The notes under the pieces: generated by a model | Told to the model about the DNA's origin: nothing | The model's input: only the letters and a program-made list of their open reading frames with translations | Database searches by the model: none | Shown: positions 1,754 to 55,050 of the stretch, in pieces | Layout of the letters: the number at the start of each line of letters is the position of its first letter | Numbering within the stretch: position 1 is the first letter of the stretch | Position numbers and translations under genes: made by a program | Source: Bacteroidia bacterium | Lineage (GTDB): Bacteria > Bacteroidota > Bacteroidia > AKYH767-A > 2013-40CM-41-45 | NCBI GenBank assembly: GCA_035341855.1 | Contig: DAOQWA010000002.1 | Coordinates: forward strand, 17,189 to 81,188 | Direction: 5' to 3' | DNA: 64,000 nt

Positions 1754-3415
1754 ATGCGCAAATGCAAAATCATCTTAATACTTATAACGACGATTCTCAT
1801 ATCATGCAGTGAGGAGAAAACTAACAGTGAAAAAACTGTATTCAGGTATAATGAAGCGGCCGGAATATCTTCCCTTGATCCTGTTTTTTCAAAAGATCAG
1901 GCAAGTATATGGCCATGCACTCAACTGTTCAACGGACTGGTCCAGCTCGATAAAGATTTAAAAGTCGTACCATGTATCGCCAGGCAATGGGAAATTTCTG
2001 AAGATGGTAGAGTTTTTACCTTTCATCTACGAACGGACGTGTTTTTTCACGAGAATATACTGCTGAACCCGAATACTAAATCGTCCGAACCGGCGACACG
2101 AAATGTTACCGCTGAAGATTTCTTGTTCAGTCTGGGGAGACTCGTTGACCCTTCGGTTGCCAGTCCCGGAGCCTGGGTTCTCAATGCAGTAGAAAAAGAT
2201 AGTTTAGGGAAAATGATTGGCATAACCGTAATCAACGATTCAACACTGAATATTCGTTTGTCAGATCCATTTCCCGCCTTTCTTTCTTTGCTTTCGATGC
2301 CATATTGTTCCGTTGTCCCAAAAGAAGTTGTCATTCACCATGGACCTGATTTCAGGAAACATCCATGTGGAACCGGTCCATTTAAATTTTCAATTTGGAA
2401 AGAAGGTGTCAGTTTGGTGTTCTTGAGAAATGAAAATTATTTTGAATACGATGGTGAACATCGTCTTCCGTTCCTTGATGCGATACAGATATCCTTTATC
2501 AATGATAAACAAAGTGCCTTTATCGAATTTTTAAAGGGCAACCTGGATTTCATTTCCGGCCTGGATGCCAGCTACAAGGACGAACTGCTCACAAGAGATG
2601 GAAAACTTCAGGAGCGCCACAAAAATAATTTCCGGCTGGAGACCTTGCCTTATCTGAATACAGAATATCTAGGAATCTTAATGAAAGATCAAAGCAAAAA
2701 TTCTGAACAACATGCATTGCAAAATAAAAAAGTAAGGCAAGCCTTAAGCTTAAGCTTTGATAAAACGAAAATGATAACCTTTCTTAGAAACAACATGGGT
2801 ACTCCCGGTATATATGGATTCGTCCCTCCGGGGATGCCATTTTTTGATTCTCTGTCTGTAGTAGGATATCATTATGATAAGGCTAAAGCTCTGTCCTTGT
2901 TAAATGAAGCAGGTTATCCTAATGGGAAGGGGCTTCCGGAAATAGTACTGAGTACTACATCAACATATCTTGATATATGTGAATTTATTAAAAGCGAATG
3001 GGAATCTATAGGATTCAAAATAAAAATTGATGTAAATCAGGCAGCCGTTCACAGGAAAATGGTCGCAGAGCAAAAGTTGGAATTCTTCAGGGGATCATGG
3101 ATTGCAGACTATCCTGACGCCGAAAATTATTTAAGCCTTTTCTATTCTAAAAATTTTGCTCCTTCCGGTCCCAACTACACCCATTTCAAGAATGAAGAAT
3201 ATGATAAGTTATACGAACAAAGCTCTCTCGAAACGGATGATTCCTTAAGATCATTGCTATACATCAAAATGGATCAGATGATTATCGATGAAGCTGTTAC
3301 AATTGTTTTGTACTATGATAAAGTACTCAGACTAACACAAAATAATATCAGCGGACTCGAAAATAATGCAATGAATTTAATGGTGTTAAAAAATGTTGTC
3401 AAGAAAAAAAACTAA
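1754..3415 (+). CDS. ABC transporter substrate-binding protein, family 5 (peptide/nickel type) lipoprotein
   Basis: 553 aa, lipoprotein signal MRKCKIILILITTILISCSE, SBP_bac_5-like architecture. No adjacent permease or ATPase genes. Confidence 0.7.
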   Translation: MRKCKIILILITTILISCSEEKTNSEKTVFRYNEAAGISSLDPVFSKDQASIWPCTQLFNGLVQLDKDLKVVPCIARQWEISEDGRVFTFHLRTDVFFHENILLNPNTKSSEPATRNVTAEDFLFSLGRLVDPSVASPGAWVLNAVEKDSLGKMIGITVINDSTLNIRLSDPFPAFLSLLSMPYCSVVPKEVVIHHGPDFRKHPCGTGPFKFSIWKEGVSLVFLRNENYFEYDGEHRLPFLDAIQISFINDKQSAFIEFLKGNLDFISGLDASYKDELLTRDGKLQERHKNNFRLETLPYLNTEYLGILMKDQSKNSEQHALQNKKVRQALSLSFDKTKMITFLRNNMGTPGIYGFVPPGMPFFDSLSVVGYHYDKAKALSLLNEAGYPNGKGLPEIVLSTTSTYLDICEFIKSEWESIGFKIKIDVNQAAVHRKMVAEQKLEFFRGSWIADYPDAENYLSLFYSKNFAPSGPNYTHFKNEEYDKLYEQSSLETDDSLRSLLYIKMDQMIIDEAVTIVLYYDKVLRLTQNNISGLENNAMNLMVLKNVVKKKN

Positions 3416-23908: not shown

Positions 23909-26900
23909 TTGTGGACAATAGGAATAGTATTACTAATCCTTTGTAGCTTTTTTGTGCTTATACAATTTTCTCCATTTCAAACCTGGCTTGCAAAACAACT
24001 TACACAGTATTTATCGGATGAACTGAAAACTACTATAACAATTGACAAGGTGCATGTCGATTTTTTAGCAGGATTTACTCTAACAGGTGTTTATATGGAG
24101 GATCTGCATAAAGACACTCTGCTTTACGCAGATCAGATTGAACTTCGCGTAAAAGATTTTAGTTCTGCGGATCGAAAAATTATCATTAAACGAATTGAAT
24201 TAGACAAGGCGAAATTTCATCTTAATCTTTATTCAGGTGAGAAGCATGATAATATCTTTTTTCTGATTGAATATTTTTCAGGCAATGATACCACCACTCA
24301 AACGAGTGAAGCAGCTTGGGATATACGCTTTGAAAACATCAAACTGACGAATGTTTCTTTTAAACGTTGGATTGAAGGTGATAGCGTTTCACCTGTTGGA
24401 ATTAATTTTTCTGATCTGGCAATCAGGGATATTAATGGCGAAATGAAGAACATGTTTTTTTCAGGGGATTCTCTTTTTGTTGATATTAAAAAACTCTCAT
24501 TCTATGAAAAGAGTGGTTTTAAAATAGATGATTTTCATACTGATGCAAAAATCGCCTCGGATCAAATGAGCTTTCAATCACTCTATATAAAGTCTCCAAA
24601 TACAGAAATCAACGGAAACCTTATTTTCGAGTATGATAGTTTCGCCGACTTCAATTGGTTTACTAAGTTAATTCACTGGAAAGCCGACTTCGCGAACACA
24701 CATGTTTCCTTTCAGGACATTTCATATTTTGCTCATGATATATGGGGCATTAAGAATGTTCTTAGCCTGGAAGGAAACTTTAAAGGTACGGTCAATAAGT
24801 TCAAAGGTAAGAATGTAGAATTGCGTTGGGGTGAAAAATCATACCTGAAAGGAAACGTTGGACTATATGGTTTGCCCTATATCTCTGAAACCTTTATGGA
24901 TGTACAGGCTGATGAAATCCTGACAAATAAAAAGGATATCGAAATCTTTCCGACATACCCGTTCACGGAAGGCAAAACACTCAGGCTTCCGGATAATATG
25001 TCGGAATTGGGAGATGTAAAGTTCAATGGAAAGTTTACAGGATTCTATAGTGACTTCGTTGCATACGGAAACATTCGAACTGAGCTTGGATATCTTTCTT
25101 CTGACTTAAACTTAAAGCATGACCGCAAAACTTCAAATTACATATATCAGGGACATTTATCTGCCACACAATTTGATGTCGGAAGGTTAACGGCGATCCC
25201 GGATATAGGGAGTGTTTCATTCAATGCACAGGTAAAAGGAAGCGGCCTGCACCTTGAAAAAATTGATGCAAGAATGACCGGAACCATTCAATCTATTGAA
25301 TACCGGAAATACGCTTATCGCAATATCAAGGTTGATGGTGAACTTTCAAAAAGAATGTTCAATGGTGTTCTTTCGATCCATGAGCCAAATCTTGGTCTTG
25401 ATTTTCAAGGAGCAATAGATTTTAGAGACACGCTGCCACTTTTTAATTTCAAAGCTGTTGTTGATAAAGCAAATCTCGATTCACTGAACCTTCTCAAATT
25501 ACCAAATGAAAATGTACTTAGTACATCTATCACAAGTTCTCTAAGAGGAAATCGTTTGGACAATCTTGAGGGAACAGTTGATATTAGTAATTCCTATATG
25601 AGATCCGGCTCTTCAATGTATCATATAAGGAATGTCAGTTTATCCGCCCAAAAAGACGACGAGGTGAATAAAAGTTTAATTCTCAATTCTGACTTTATGA
25701 ATGCCAATATCAGGGGTCAATTTGAGTTGGCAACCTTGTTTGATGCATTCAAAGAAATACTCCCAAGATATCTTCCATCGGTAATATTGCCGGTCAACTC
25801 TGACCCCGGGAAGCAAAATTTTAAATTTGACATTCATTTAAAGAACACTTCCATTATTACTGAACTTTTCTTGCCGTCCTGGACATTAGACCCTATGACA
25901 ACTTTGAAAGGTGCAGTGAACACAAACAATAGCACTTTCAATTTACAATTAAACTCTCCAAGTATTCGATATAATAATCTGGCTTTTCAATCATTAGGGG
26001 TAGACATAAATGCAAACAACAGGGAGCTCACATTAAATGCTAATGTGGCCAGGTTTAACTTCACAGAAAATGCATTTATTCCTCAGATAACCATTCGTTC
26101 AAGTGCCAGAAACAATTTTGTTCAATCTGATCTCCAATTAGCCAACTCAGATTCCTTTCCTAATCGTGCGCACCTGAAAGCAGGTATGGAATTTTATTCA
26201 TCTAGCCGTTTTGATTTGAAATTTGATTCCTCGATAATAATCCTCAGAAATAAATTGTGGAATATCAATGCGGCAAATATTGTTGCATTTGATACCAGTT
26301 CAATCAGGTTTAGCAGCTTAAGCTTTAGCAATAGTCTGGAATCTGTCGAAGTTGATGGTATCATAGGAAAATCCATTGAAGAAAACCTGGGACTCACATT
26401 CCAAAATTTCGACCTTAATAATCTTGACCCATTGTTTCAACTGGGAAAAAGCAGGCTAGGAGGTACAATCAATGGGAATATGGTGTTGAACGAAGCTAGA
26501 AAAAACCTTAAAGCCGAGACAGATTTAGTCATTTCAAATCTTGTTCTTAACGGTGATACATTAGGAAACGCAAGTTTGGTTTCGCGCTACAATAATGAAC
26601 ATAAAATTGTTGTTGCTAATGTGGGTATTACCAAAGGTACGGCCAAGATCCTGGAGTTAAAAGGAAATTACTACGCTGCCAAGAAGGATGACAACCTTGA
26701 TTTTGACATGAAAATTTCAAACTTTTATTTACAAACCATTGAACCCTATATTGACGAAGTTCTCTCAGATGTGAGAGGAAAAGTGTCTGCGAACTTAAAA
26801 TTAACGGGAACTTTAGAAAAGCCGGTTATTGAAGGTAATGTTGATCTCATCAGAGCAACTTGTGTGGTCAACTATCTAAATACTAAATATAGCCTGAGCA

Positions 26901-28303
26901 ATACTGTAAAGGTGAAAAAAAACCTCTTTGATCTAAATGGAGTTACTGTCATTGATAAAGATAATAATGAAGCGAAAGTAAAAGGTAAAATCACACATGA
27001 TTTTTTCGATCATTTTGCCTTTGATGTTGAAGTATACCCGAATAACTTTCAAATGCTCAACACAAGTTATGCTCAAAACTCTCTCTATTATGGAAATGCA
27101 GTAGTATCCGGCTATGCACATTTCTACGGTCCTTTACAACTGATTGGAATGGATATTAACCTTGTACCCGCAAGAGGTACCATAATAAATATTCCTTTGA
27201 GTAATTCATCAGAGGTAACACAAAGTGATTTTATCACCTTTGTGGACCACTCCAAAAATTACGAATATGACGAAAAGCCTAGAACACTTGTCACTAACTC
27301 AGGTATTCGTCTGAATATGAATCTGGATATGAATCCTTCTGCTACTATCAACCTCATATTTGATGAAAAAATAGGTGACGTAATTTCAGGTACCGGTGAT
27401 GGAAGCATCAGAATGGATATAGATCAGAATGGTGTGTTCACCATGTATGGTACTTATACAATTTCAAAGGGTGAATACCTTTTTACTTTACAGAATCTTA
27501 TCAATAAGAAATTCAATATTGATTCGGGAAGCAGAATCACCTGGGCGGGAGACCCATATGAAGCAAACGTAGATTTATCTGCAGTTTACGTTTTGTACAC
27601 TTCCTCATTATACAATTTAGTTCAGGACTCTACTTATAAAAGAAGGTTACCTGTAGAATGTCGTTTGATGCTGAGTAATAAACTCCTTAACCCAACAATC
27701 AATTACGACATCAATGTCCGTGGATTAGACCCTGCAGGAGAAAGTATTGTAAAAAGTATACTTACTTCTGAGCAGGAGGTAAGCAAACAGATGTTTAGCC
27801 TCTTATTATTAAATCAATTTTCACCACCTTCCAACCAATCTGCTTCTTCCTCCAGGATCGATGCCGGTGCCGGTGCCGGTGCAAGTGCGTCAGAATTATT
27901 GAGTAATCAAGTCAGTAATTGGCTGGGAAGACTGAGTAAGGATGTTAACATTGGAATAAATTATCGGTCAAGAGATAATTATAGCAATGAAGAGATCCAG
28001 CTTTTATTTGCGAAATCACTTTTCAATGACAGACTTTTAGTTGAAGGCAATGTGGGATATATGAGTAATCAAAGTCAAAACACGAACGATCTTGTCGGAG
28101 ATTTTTATGCAGAATACAAAGTGAGTGAGGATGGTCGCTTTCGCTTAAAGGGATTCAACCGTTCAAACGCAGATAATGTCTTAAATTATTCAGCACCCTA
28201 TACCCAAGGATTCGGAATTTTTTTCAGGCAAGAATTTAATAATGCAAGAGATCTATTGCAACGATTAAAAATTATTAACAGGAAGTCTGATGGTGAAAAT
28301 TAA
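23909..28303 (+). CDS. tamB: translocation and assembly module protein TamB (DUF490/AsmA-like)
   Basis: 1464 aa with N-terminal signal-anchor and a long beta-rich body. Typically found divergent from tsaD. Apparent non-ATG (TTG) start. Confidence 0.8.
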   Translation: MWTIGIVLLILCSFFVLIQFSPFQTWLAKQLTQYLSDELKTTITIDKVHVDFLAGFTLTGVYMEDLHKDTLLYADQIELRVKDFSSADRKIIIKRIELDKAKFHLNLYSGEKHDNIFFLIEYFSGNDTTTQTSEAAWDIRFENIKLTNVSFKRWIEGDSVSPVGINFSDLAIRDINGEMKNMFFSGDSLFVDIKKLSFYEKSGFKIDDFHTDAKIASDQMSFQSLYIKSPNTEINGNLIFEYDSFADFNWFTKLIHWKADFANTHVSFQDISYFAHDIWGIKNVLSLEGNFKGTVNKFKGKNVELRWGEKSYLKGNVGLYGLPYISETFMDVQADEILTNKKDIEIFPTYPFTEGKTLRLPDNMSELGDVKFNGKFTGFYSDFVAYGNIRTELGYLSSDLNLKHDRKTSNYIYQGHLSATQFDVGRLTAIPDIGSVSFNAQVKGSGLHLEKIDARMTGTIQSIEYRKYAYRNIKVDGELSKRMFNGVLSIHEPNLGLDFQGAIDFRDTLPLFNFKAVVDKANLDSLNLLKLPNENVLSTSITSSLRGNRLDNLEGTVDISNSYMRSGSSMYHIRNVSLSAQKDDEVNKSLILNSDFMNANIRGQFELATLFDAFKEILPRYLPSVILPVNSDPGKQNFKFDIHLKNTSIITELFLPSWTLDPMTTLKGAVNTNNSTFNLQLNSPSIRYNNLAFQSLGVDINANNRELTLNANVARFNFTENAFIPQITIRSSARNNFVQSDLQLANSDSFPNRAHLKAGMEFYSSSRFDLKFDSSIIILRNKLWNINAANIVAFDTSSIRFSSLSFSNSLESVEVDGIIGKSIEENLGLTFQNFDLNNLDPLFQLGKSRLGGTINGNMVLNEARKNLKAETDLVISNLVLNGDTLGNASLVSRYNNEHKIVVANVGITKGTAKILELKGNYYAAKKDDNLDFDMKISNFYLQTIEPYIDEVLSDVRGKVSANLKLTGTLEKPVIEGNVDLIRATCVVNYLNTKYSLSNTVKVKKNLFDLNGVTVIDKDNNEAKVKGKITHDFFDHFAFDVEVYPNNFQMLNTSYAQNSLYYGNAVVSGYAHFYGPLQLIGMDINLVPARGTIINIPLSNSSEVTQSDFITFVDHSKNYEYDEKPRTLVTNSGIRLNMNLDMNPSATINLIFDEKIGDVISGTGDGSIRMDIDQNGVFTMYGTYTISKGEYLFTLQNLINKKFNIDSGSRITWAGDPYEANVDLSAVYVLYTSSLYNLVQDSTYKRRLPVECRLMLSNKLLNPTINYDINVRGLDPAGESIVKSILTSEQEVSKQMFSLLLLNQFSPPSNQSASSSRIDAGAGAGASASELLSNQVSNWLGRLSKDVNIGINYRSRDNYSNEEIQLLFAKSLFNDRLLVEGNVGYMSNQSQNTNDLVGDFYAEYKVSEDGRFRLKGFNRSNADNVLNYSAPYTQGFGIFFRQEFNNARDLLQRLKIINRKSDGEN

Positions 28304-28330
28304 TAAAGGAATAGTCTTTTATTGAAAACA

Positions 28331-28362
28331 AAAAAACCGAACCTTAGGGGGTTCGGTTTTTT
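28331..28362 (+). terminator. rho-independent terminator of tamB
   Basis: AACCGAACC-ttaggg-GGTTCGGTT 9-bp stem followed by a T-run. Confidence 0.75.
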
Positions 28363-28541
28363 GTGATCAACCTGATTAGGTTGTCATTTGTGTTCAACCA
28401 TATGTGTTTCTGTTTGCGTTTATACAATGATACAATTTGAAAAAAAACTTGTCGGCCATTTTTGTCCTTTATCTTACACTAATAAAAATATATTTCATCT
28501 CCCAGAATTTTTTAACAGCAATGGAATGGTACAAAAAGAAC

Positions 28542-28600
28542 AAACGCTGCCGAGCCTTACGGGGCTGTGCAGCGTTTGAGAGTAACCTTACGGGGTTACC
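28542..28600 (+). other. candidate structured RNA or cis-regulatory element: two adjacent hairpins with identical TTACGG loops
   Basis: AAACGCTGC...GCAGCGTTT 9-bp stem enclosing AGCC-TTACGG-GGCT. Immediately followed by GTAACC-TTACGG-GGTTAC. Lies in a 550-bp ORF-poor spacer. Confidence 0.3.
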
Positions 28601-28856
28601 GGTAAACCATACGCTTTTGTCTAGGTTTATAATACAATGATAAGGCATCAGAAACAGGCCATGTCAGCCATCAGAAGCATTTCATTACAGATGCAAGCAA
28701 TTTTCAAATACTGATTGAAATACACCTAAAATTCCTCTATTTACTCCAGGAAAACGAAATTTGAGAAATAATGGGTCAAAACATCCTGCAAGATTTCATT
28801 AATTAGAAGAGAAAATAGCTATAAAAAATTAGAAAAACTGTTCCACAGAACTTTGC

Positions 28857-28864
28857 TAACTTTG
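28857..28864 (+). promoter_or_regulatory. Bacteroidetes sigma-A -7 box (TAnnTTTG) upstream of ribBA
   Basis: TAACTTTG lies 22 nt upstream of the ribBA ATG at 28886. Confidence 0.4.
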
Positions 28865-28885
28865 CAGCAACATTATATTCAATCT

Positions 28886-30100
28886 ATGTTCCAGCTAAAT
28901 ACAATTGAAGAAGCAATAAATGACCTGAAGGCAGGTAAGGCAATCATTGTCGTTGATGATGCCAACAGAGAAAATGAAGGTGATTTTATCGTTCCTGCTG
29001 AAATGGCTACTCCGGAGATAATAAATTTTATGGCCACTCATGGAAGAGGTTTAATCTGTGTTGCACTAACCGAAGAACGATGTCAGCAATTAGATCTCAA
29101 TTTGATGGTTCAAAAGAATACATCCTCACACGAAACACAATTTACTGTATCTGTGGATCTTTTGGGGTTTGGAACAACGACGGGCATTTCCGCAAGCGAT
29201 CGGTCAAAAACCGTTCGTGCGCTAATAGATCCAAAAACTAAAAAAGAAGATCTAGGTCGGCCCGGGCATATTTTTCCTCTGATTGCCAAGAAAGGTGGAG
29301 TCTTACGCAGGACCGGGCATACCGAAGCAACAGTAGATCTTTCCAGGCTGGCAGGATTTCAACCTGCAGGGGCACTTGTTGAAATCATGAACGAGGATGG
29401 CACAATGGCCCGCCTTCCGGATTTGATCAAAATTTCTGAAAAGTTCGATTTGAAAATTATCAGCATAGAAGATTTGATAGCGTATAGGTTAAAAAAGGAG
29501 AGCCTTATTGAAAAAGAAGTTACTGTTAAACTTCCAACTACCTGGGGTGATTTTAATTTACATGCCTACCGGCAAATTACAACCGGGCAGGAACATCTCG
29601 CCCTTGTAAAAGGAGAATGGAAATCTGATGAGCCTGTTCTTGTAAGAGTTCACTCTTCCTGTCTTACCGGTGATATCTTCGGATCATGCCGCTGTGATTG
29701 TGGGCCGCAACTACATGCCTCAATGACCATGATCGAGAAGGAAGGACGAGGCGTAATCGTCTACATGAATCAAGAGGGCAGGGGTATTGGTCTTTTGAAT
29801 AAACTCAAAGCCTATAAACTCCAGGAAAACGGATTGGATACTGTCGAAGCAAATATTGAGTTAGGCTTTGAGAGTGATGAAAGAGACTATGGTGTTGGCG
29901 CACAAATACTCCGAGACCTTGGCGTTTCAAAGATGCGCTTGATGACCAACAATCCTAAAAAAAGAGCAGGACTTATCGGTTACGGTTTAGAGATTACTGA
30001 AGTTGTACCGATTGAAATGGAGTCAAATCAGTATAATCATTCCTACCTTCAGACAAAGCGGGATAAGCTGGGACATGATATACGTATGGTGAAAGATTGA
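28886..30100 (+). CDS. ribBA: bifunctional 3,4-dihydroxy-2-butanone-4-phosphate synthase / GTP cyclohydrolase II
   Basis: DHBP synthase motifs (RENEGD, GHTEA) followed by GTP cyclohydrolase II motifs (CxCxxxxxxxC-like [16 protein letters not shown]). Confidence 0.93.
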
Positions 30101-54879: not shown

Positions 54880-54941
54880 CGCCGGTTTTTTATCTCTGAT
54901 TTTAATTGCATAAATATCCGAAATAAAGGATTAGGTTGATC

Positions 54942-54985
54942 CAAAAAAAAATCGAACCAGGCACAAGGACCGGTTCGATTTTTTA
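54942..54985 (-). terminator. rho-independent terminator downstream of clpB
   Basis: ATCGAACC...GGTTCGAT 8-bp stem with flanking A8 on the + strand (U-run on the clpB transcript). Confidence 0.6.
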
Positions 54986-55050
54986 TATTTCATCAGGTTT
55001 TACTTGACCACCATGGCCTTAGTAAGGAGAAGTACAATTTTACACCGACG

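Follow-up and report, generated by a model that had tools for sequence, protein, structure and literature searches.

Two tandem candidate small RNA genes with an invariant hairpin loop in the tamB–ribBA spacer of a Bacteroidota bacterium

Organization of the tamB–ribBA spacer

In the window (the whole 64-kb stretch of DNA that was analyzed), tamB and ribBA are both located on the plus strand and are separated by one 582-nt spacer (28304–28885), which had been put at ~550 bp in the preliminary description. tamB (23909–28303) is an open reading frame whose orthologues carry the Pfam domains TamB and TamB_N; ribBA, taken together with its own −7 box, spans 28857–30100 and contains the Pfam domains DHBP_synthase and GTP_cyclohydro2. 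The ribBA −7 box (TAACTTTG, 28857–28864, plus strand) had been noted before; it is located 21 nt before the ATG at 28886 (22 nt by the earlier count), and the ribBA promoter block GAACTTTGCTAACTTTGCA is conserved in relatives. The promoter region also contains one tandem AACTTTGC repeat (GAACTTTGC-TAACTTTGC, 28849–28865), in effect two overlapping −7-like boxes, which is kept in relatives despite their diverged spacers. Rfam scans gave no match to the FMN riboswitch (RF00050) in the window, nor at any of 26 additional ribBA loci from Bacteroidota (among them one set of 16 loci and L119, L121, L122, L124, L127 and L130–L133); classical riboswitch control of ribBA seems absent in the scanned lineages.

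Three hairpins are present in the spacer, all at the positions previously given and with loops as described there. The tamB terminator hairpin, AAAAAACCGAACC-TTAGGG-GGTTCGGTTTTTT (28331–28362, both strands), has one perfect 13-bp stem, flanked by an A-run on its 5′ side and a T-run on its 3′ side; its loop is CCTTAGGGGG in the window and CCTTACGGGG in most relatives. The second is one nested, 38-nt hairpin (28541–28578) of the arrangement CAAACGCTGC/CG/AGCC-TTACGG-GGCT/GT/GCAGCGTTTG, and the third is the 18-nt hairpin GTAACC-TTACGG-GGTTAC (28582–28599); the loop context of both is CCTTACGGGG. Exact CCTTACGGGG occurs only twice in the 64-kb window, both times in this spacer. With one mismatch allowed, four sites were found, compared to 0.94 expected. 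When 28525–28650 was folded, both strands beat 200 of 200 dinucleotide shuffles, with z values of −3.8 (plus) and −3.1 (minus). The plus strand folds 5.7 kcal/mol better than the minus strand (−42.3 versus −36.6 kcal/mol), and its hairpins gain one extra U·G pair that closes a UACG tetraloop.

We compared the window with Rfam 15 (4227 models). At the gathering threshold, the whole window gave only one tRNA; at E values up to 10, region 28250–28950 gave only sub-threshold chance matches centred on the terminator, none of them credible. Scanning of 12 other loci that carry the element described below and of one phage locus gave no family match at the gathering score; the 12 loci gave only tRNAs. 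One simple hairpin-plus-T-run scan, which is crude and misses even the tamB terminator, picked 10 other candidate terminators in the window. As none of the 10 has a CCGUAA loop (the minus-strand reading of TTACGG), this loop was rejected as a general terminator feature of the genome.

Conservation in relatives

The second and third hairpins are located in one conserved block of ~110 nt (28532–28642), hereafter unit B or the element. This block is 95–98% identical in relatives in which the ribBA DNA is 74–80% identical, the adjacent spacer is only ~52% identical and the flanks are unalignable. In the closest relative among the GTDB species representatives (L001, RibBA 87% identical), one identical 104-nt block is present in the same spacer, again between unalignable flanks. 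All relatives found by the RibBA protein alone carry the block: L114–L120 (RibBA 94%, 92%, 91% and 88% identical), L121 and L122 (85% and 83%) and three NCBI MAGs, L137–L139 (82–83%). The covariance model R1, built from unit B only, scores unit B with 92–131 bits in every examined relative with a RibBA identity of 82% or more, and one exact-pattern scan of metagenome contigs added eight distinct members. Among the carriers are MAGs that come from a large number of public metagenome samples. The element is absent from the other 79 GTDB ribBA loci, in which RibBA is 77% identical or less. As RibBA identity falls, element identity falls from 98% to 72%.

The element is located upstream of ribBA, in constant orientation, at 15 of the 17 pattern-carrying loci; in 14 of them it lies 213–280 nt from the ATG. 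In L119, the ribBA ATG was not placed, and the ribBA −7 box is found at the usual 246 nt. The position upstream of ribBA is also kept where tamB is not next door and a rhodanese or a membrane protein gene takes its place (L127, L130, L131, L137 and L138); in L125 and L126, the element is present with no ribBA downstream. In the window, R1 matches only unit B and the related unit A described below; in the loci of relatives, up to 21 kb in size, it matches only the syntenic site.

Pairing between the 5′ domain of the predicted RNA and the translation-initiation region of ribBA in the same genome was also considered and rejected; in 14 of 15 genomes, the duplex energy is no better than that of random windows. 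Because ribBA keeps its own promoter, lacks an FMN riboswitch and pairs with the RNA no better than random, the linkage of the element to ribBA looks like conserved divergent synteny. As a side observation, the tamB-like gene of L126 (12700–12745) ends with GGC CTT ACG GGG GAG, which places one CCTTACGGGG string inside coding sequence before the stop; this is probably a coincidence.

Covariation and loop invariance

Alignment A2 holds 14 distinct sequences and was read on the minus strand. RNAalifold predicts both hairpins on A2; 99.2% of the 264 cells are standard pairs, and 9 of the 19 pairs are changed on both sides. None of the 500 shuffled controls reached the observed values, and pairing with slid partners dropped to 18–47%. 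Compensatory changes, which the preliminary description had proposed to look for in orthologous spacers, are thus present in both hairpins.

Ten nucleotides, CCCCGUAAGG, which comprise the loop and its two closing pairs, are invariant in both unit B hairpins. Nine of the 14 sequences were found by a pattern that requires both loops and ACCATA, and loop conservation in these nine is by construction. However, five members found by RibBA or synteny alone (L121, L122, L137–L139) keep both loops exact, whereas their stems are changed; the search pattern alone therefore does not account for the invariance of the loops. Indels of 1–2 nt occur between close relatives and no ORF is conserved, as expected of non-coding DNA. 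The 63- and 67-aa ORFs listed for the spacer both exist.

Strand, promoter-like box and upstream palindrome of unit B

Directly after the large hairpin, one U-rich run is present on the minus strand in all members and on the plus strand in none. The G·U pairs are also distributed unevenly; the stems contain six G·U cells when read on the minus strand, compared to one that would be G·U on the plus strand. One box of the family TATnaTTG is present in all members, 20–26 nt upstream of UAUGGU, and its TTG is invariant in A2. Compared to the Bacteroidota −7 consensus TAnnTTTG, the box is one position off and its position 5 is never T; the −33 TTTG is not conserved. We infer that the box functions as a promoter, and one weak box without −33 element fits a promoter that depends on an activator.

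Further upstream, one 14-bp palindrome with the consensus CTTACA-NN-TGTAAG has its best match 40–41 bp from the box in all 17 sequences, and the intervening sequence is unconserved. In 16 of the 17, it deviates from the consensus at 0–2 positions, and no more than 6 of 500 shuffles are as good; L124 is the exception, with four mismatches and 120 of 500 shuffles as good. The distance from the palindrome to the ribBA promoter varies (186 to 246), and elsewhere in the 64-kb window the palindrome occurs at chance level only. For an activator that binds as a dimer, a site centred near −60 is the classic location, and the 6-2-6 format is reminiscent of the sites bound by PrfA and other regulators of the Crp/Fnr family. 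In L138, one Crp/Fnr-family gene (cNMP_binding and HTH_Crp_2; 129–752, GCA_016721775.1) is located ~2 kb upstream of the element; its product is a possible binder of the CTTACA-NN-TGTAAG palindrome.

The U-run, the box, the phasing of the palindrome and the wobble pairs all point to the same strand, and the RNA is most likely encoded on the minus strand. The preliminary description placed the hairpins correctly; it missed the minus strand, the extension of the conserved block to 28642 and the putative operator at 28684–28697. In minus-strand order, unit B begins with this palindrome (CTTGCATCTGTAAT in the minus reading), presumably the site of a dimeric transcription factor at about −60. The promoter-like box TATCATTG (28635–28642, minus) forms the right-hand edge of the conserved block. 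It is followed by the predicted sRNA B (28532–28629, minus), which would be ~98 nt in length, with an approximate 5′ end set from the position of the box.

The 5′ part of sRNA B may form one stem-loop (28603–28629, minus), in which UAAACC and GGUUUA enclose an A-rich loop; it contains the near-invariant UAUGGUU (plus-strand 28605–28611). TATGGTT is invariant in A2, and one variant, UAAGGUU, is found in L137. The proposed stem shows one compensatory change, A-U to U-A, in L125/L126. Because the box is only 2 nt away from this stem in L124 and L131, its full inclusion in the RNA is uncertain. Hairpin 2, GUAACC[CCGUAA]GGUUAC (28582–28599, minus), has all of its cells paired, with compensatory changes in two of five pairs. 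The terminator hairpin (28541–28578) contains one 2 × 2 internal loop and the loop CCGUAA, and half of its pairs (7 of 14) have changed in a compensatory way; together with the following UUCUUUUUG (28540–28532), it occupies 28532–28578 on the minus strand.

UAUGGUU, which is preceded by the A-rich loop, also opens one tiny reading frame, AUG GUU UAC CGG UAA (28597–28611, minus), shortened to AUG GUU UAA in most of the distant members. We dropped it as a candidate mini-ORF; as the AUG is lost in L137, it is probably not coding.

A second, paralogous unit

A second unit, unit A, was located first by nhmmer and then by R1, which matches 28316–28434 on the minus strand with 57.5 bits (E 7e-11). 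R1 also matches the equivalent place in seven relatives (L114, L116, L119, L120, L121, L128 and L133), and over the window and these relatives the E values are of the order of 1e-11. Like unit B, unit A contains an upstream site, a box and a predicted RNA in the same order. At the upstream site (28473–28486), 40 bp from the box, only the promoter-proximal half-site TGTAAGA (minus) is well kept; nine unit A copies preserve (T)GTAAG(A/G) at this 40-bp distance. The promoter-like box TATCATTG (28425–28432, minus) has GTATCATTGTAT in common with unit B, and in relatives it reads TATCATTG, TATTCTTG or TATTATTG. The predicted sRNA A (28325–28419, minus) would be ~95 nt in length; it comprises UAUGGUUGAACAC, the short hairpin CAACCUAAUCAGGUUG (28383–28368), the terminator hairpin 28362–28331 and then UUUUUUUGUUUU. 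The short hairpin covaries, and in L121 it also has one exact CCTTACGGGG loop.

Judged by these sequence comparisons, unit A is a more degenerate paralogue of unit B, located immediately to its left. The R1 match and the CCTTACGGGG terminator loops of the relatives indicate that the three similar loops of the spacer belong to two paralogous genes. The hairpin at 28331–28362 is thus interpreted as a bidirectional terminator, common to tamB on the plus strand and to the predicted sRNA A on the minus strand; the tamB terminator reported earlier is present, but as the 3′ end of the second unit rather than as a third independent hairpin. Two weak R1 matches, at 54899–54995 in the window and at 3212–3334 in L002, are ordinary terminators and were discarded.

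A phage counterpart of the double hairpin

We scanned IMG/VR for two CCTTACGGGG loops 15–30 nt apart and obtained 33 loci; 11 distinct sequences form one family (L086 at 1300–1408, L081, L083, L087–L089, L105–L107, L110 and L113). In this family, one short hairpin and one terminator hairpin, both with CCCCGUAAGG-type loops and with covarying stems, are located after the T4-type major capsid gene and before phoH. In the orientation of the phage genes, the transcribed strand of the same double hairpin carries the U-run and the mRNA reads CCGUAA, the same order and strand as in the 3′ half of the predicted bacterial sRNA. As the scan pattern required both loops, loop conservation is partly by construction here; order, spacing and strand are not. 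R1 scores the phage modules with 40–55 bits, and the CCTTACGGGG motif is found nowhere else in the fetched phage loci.

The phages are uncultured, T4-like and related to Flavobacterium phage vB_FspM_immuto. This nearest cultured relative has one ordinary UUCG terminator after its capsid gene and no double hairpin. The phage module could be mimicry, or a transfer, of the host RNA module; the capsid gene that it follows is the late gene with the strongest expression.

Alternative explanations

The preliminary description had left three options side by side: one separate sRNA gene, a long structured leader and short repeated palindromes. In 15 of the 17 loci, the element keeps its orientation and, roughly, its distance to ribBA, even where the upstream gene is not tamB. 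The same might be expected of a plus-strand cis-regulatory leader or riboswitch-like element of ribBA, whose transcription would start at an unrecognised promoter further upstream or continue from tamB by read-through. The fold is also more stable on the plus strand, with UACG tetraloops, and since no FMN riboswitch is found at the scanned ribBA loci, another control element is plausible. We nevertheless consider a leader quite unlikely. The element is located upstream of ribBA's own strongly conserved promoter, 21 nt from the ATG, and the ~200 nt between the two are unconserved; on the plus side, the hairpins are preceded by no conserved sequence except the A-run, and no U-run, terminator, antiterminator or alternative pairing is present. 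Moreover, the palindrome and the box are phased to each other and not to ribBA, L125 and L126 have the element without ribBA downstream, and on the plus strand the tamB terminator would have to be the start of unit A. It is also unlikely that the hairpins act only as terminators or insulators, which stop or stabilize neighboring transcripts without any separate functional RNA. The large hairpins with their U-runs look like intrinsic terminators of the textbook type, the hairpin at 28331–28362 terminates tamB, and in the phages the double hairpin just follows the 3′ end of the major capsid gene. However, unit B carries its U-run on the minus strand, where no gene precedes it, so its terminator can act only on RNA whose synthesis begins within the spacer. 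A terminator role would also give no reason for the conservation of the 5′ domain, for the box and the phased palindrome, or for the 95–98% identity over all 110 nt, and the other terminators of the window lack this loop.

With several similar palindromes in one spacer, dispersed REP- or MITE-like repeats come to mind, and so close a match of the block between diverged genomes might reflect the recent transfer of a mobile segment. Both are very improbable: exact CCTTACGGGG is confined to this spacer (two copies in 64 kb), R1 matches only the two units and, in loci of up to 21 kb, the syntenic sites, the divergence of the element tracks that of its hosts, and no terminal repeats or transposase are present. 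A gene for a small protein or toxin across the hairpins is hardly credible. ORFs of 59–67 aa do overlap the block, and one public gene call in L116 is a 99-aa minus-strand hypothetical protein (2493–2792, about 28470–28650 in the window), to which the minus-strand 59-aa ORF of the window (28469–28648) is comparable; however, 1–2 nt indels shift the frame between close relatives, ORF starts and upstream parts are unconserved, conservation is uniform at all codon positions, substitutions are compensatory across the stems, and no Pfam match is on record for the L116 ORF. The 99-aa and 59-aa ORFs look like annotation artefacts over a non-coding element.

The separate sRNA gene is thus the option that is supported, in the form of two minus-strand units; the leader is disfavoured and the repeats are rejected. 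We regard it as probable that the spacer contains two tandem paralogous, regulator-dependent sRNA genes on the minus strand, which would be transcribed towards tamB and away from ribBA. The reading builds on conservation, covariation and paralogy, on the fixed spacing of the parts and on the strand asymmetry of the U-run. From these, we infer that both units are transcribed and that they depend on one dimeric activator near −60.

Comparison with known RNAs

Conservation at the locus is confined to one promoter-to-terminator intergenic unit, whose structure is backed by covariation, as in an sRNA gene; intrinsic terminators are found on the minus strand in both units and, at 28331–28362, also on the plus strand for tamB. 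Stand-alone trans-acting sRNAs are known as tandem paralogue pairs or sets, such as OmrA/OmrB, PrrF1/PrrF2 and Qrr. Like the OmrA/OmrB-type sRNAs, the units described here are intergenic, ~95 nt in length and present as a tandem duplicate. Each has its own predicted promoter with one regulator site upstream, contains stem-loops, ends in a Rho-independent terminator and is conserved only between promoter and terminator. Different from these sRNAs, the most conserved parts here are the two hairpin loops, not the seed, and no sequence or Rfam kinship to described families is seen. The literature on the loop sequence and on Flavobacterium sRNAs and ribBA gave nothing relevant. The predicted RNAs form a new family, absent from Rfam 15 and from the searched literature, of a well-known kind of element.

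The GacA box, TGTAAGN6CTTACA, is the palindrome upstream of Csr/Rsm sRNA promoters (PMC8523701). Like CsrB, CsrC, RsmY and RsmZ, the predicted RNAs have repeated hairpin loops with one conserved short motif, a Rho-independent terminator and a promoter with one upstream palindrome of the same two hexamers, TGTAAG and CTTACA. However, the GacA box itself is absent; here the hexamers are in reversed order and 2 bp apart, compared to 6 bp. In addition, the loops (CCGUAA closed by CC/GG) contain no ANGGA/AGGA or GGA, and there are two motif copies per RNA. By analogy, the likeness to Csr/Rsm is thus one of shared logic, not of membership.

The TwoAYGGAY RNA motif of Rfam also consists of two adjacent hairpins with the same conserved loop hexamer. 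It resembles the element in its paired hairpins with identical loop motifs; the loop here is CCGUAA and not AYGGAY, the taxa are different, and Rfam gave no match at E values up to 10. Like intrinsic and bidirectional terminators, the large hairpins are G+C-rich and are followed by a U-run, with A- and T-runs flanking 28331–28362. Ordinary terminators, however, do not have one 10-nt loop that is invariant across genomes, or one phased promoter and operator ~100 nt upstream. The FMN riboswitch (RF00050) usually controls riboflavin genes in cis, and the element shares with it the location upstream of a riboflavin biosynthesis gene; different from the riboswitch, it gives no family match, precedes the ribBA promoter and reads best on the opposite strand.

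Proposed mode of action

In the model that we propose, each unit would consist, in minus-strand order, of one palindromic or half-palindromic operator, a gap of 40–41 bp, one weak −7-type box (TATnaTTG) and one RNA of ~95 nt. Binding of a dimeric activator to CTTACA-NN-TGTAAG near −60 would switch on expression of the unit. Each RNA would contain an A-rich 5′ region with UAUGGUU, one short hairpin and one intrinsic terminator hairpin with its U-run.

The loops are the most conserved part and are duplicated within the RNA, which suggests that they are recognized by a protein. In unit B, the twice-repeated invariant loop CC[CCGUAA]GG could be the docking site of an RNA-binding protein, in a sponge or in an RNP-type sRNA; the single-stranded UAUGGUU region at the 5′ end is a possible base-pairing seed. 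Judged by the alignments, constraint on the loops rather than on a single-stranded seed is unusual for a base-pairing sRNA. One bolder version of the model, which we find rather doubtful, is that the RNAs are Csr/Rsm-like, regulator-switched sRNAs that sequester or deliver a host factor, and that T4-like Flavobacteriales phages copied the module onto the 3′ end of their major capsid mRNA to recruit or titrate this factor.

To our knowledge, Bacteroidota lack both Hfq and ProQ, so the mode of action of an sRNA in this phylum cannot simply be assumed, and we know of few conserved sRNA families described in Bacteroidota outside the gut Bacteroides. Post-transcriptional regulation in Bacteroidota is poorly understood. 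The predicted family is conserved and sharply defined, with its operator, box, 5′ domain, two identical docking-like loops and tandem paralogue. If the loops bind a host factor, a new RNA-binding protein would be indicated, and with it a case of phage mimicry; if they bind none, the family would still be a clean addition to the sRNA catalogue. For annotation, the locus calls for some caution: gene callers place spurious ORFs on the element, and the shared hairpin at 28331–28362 would pass as the tamB terminator only.
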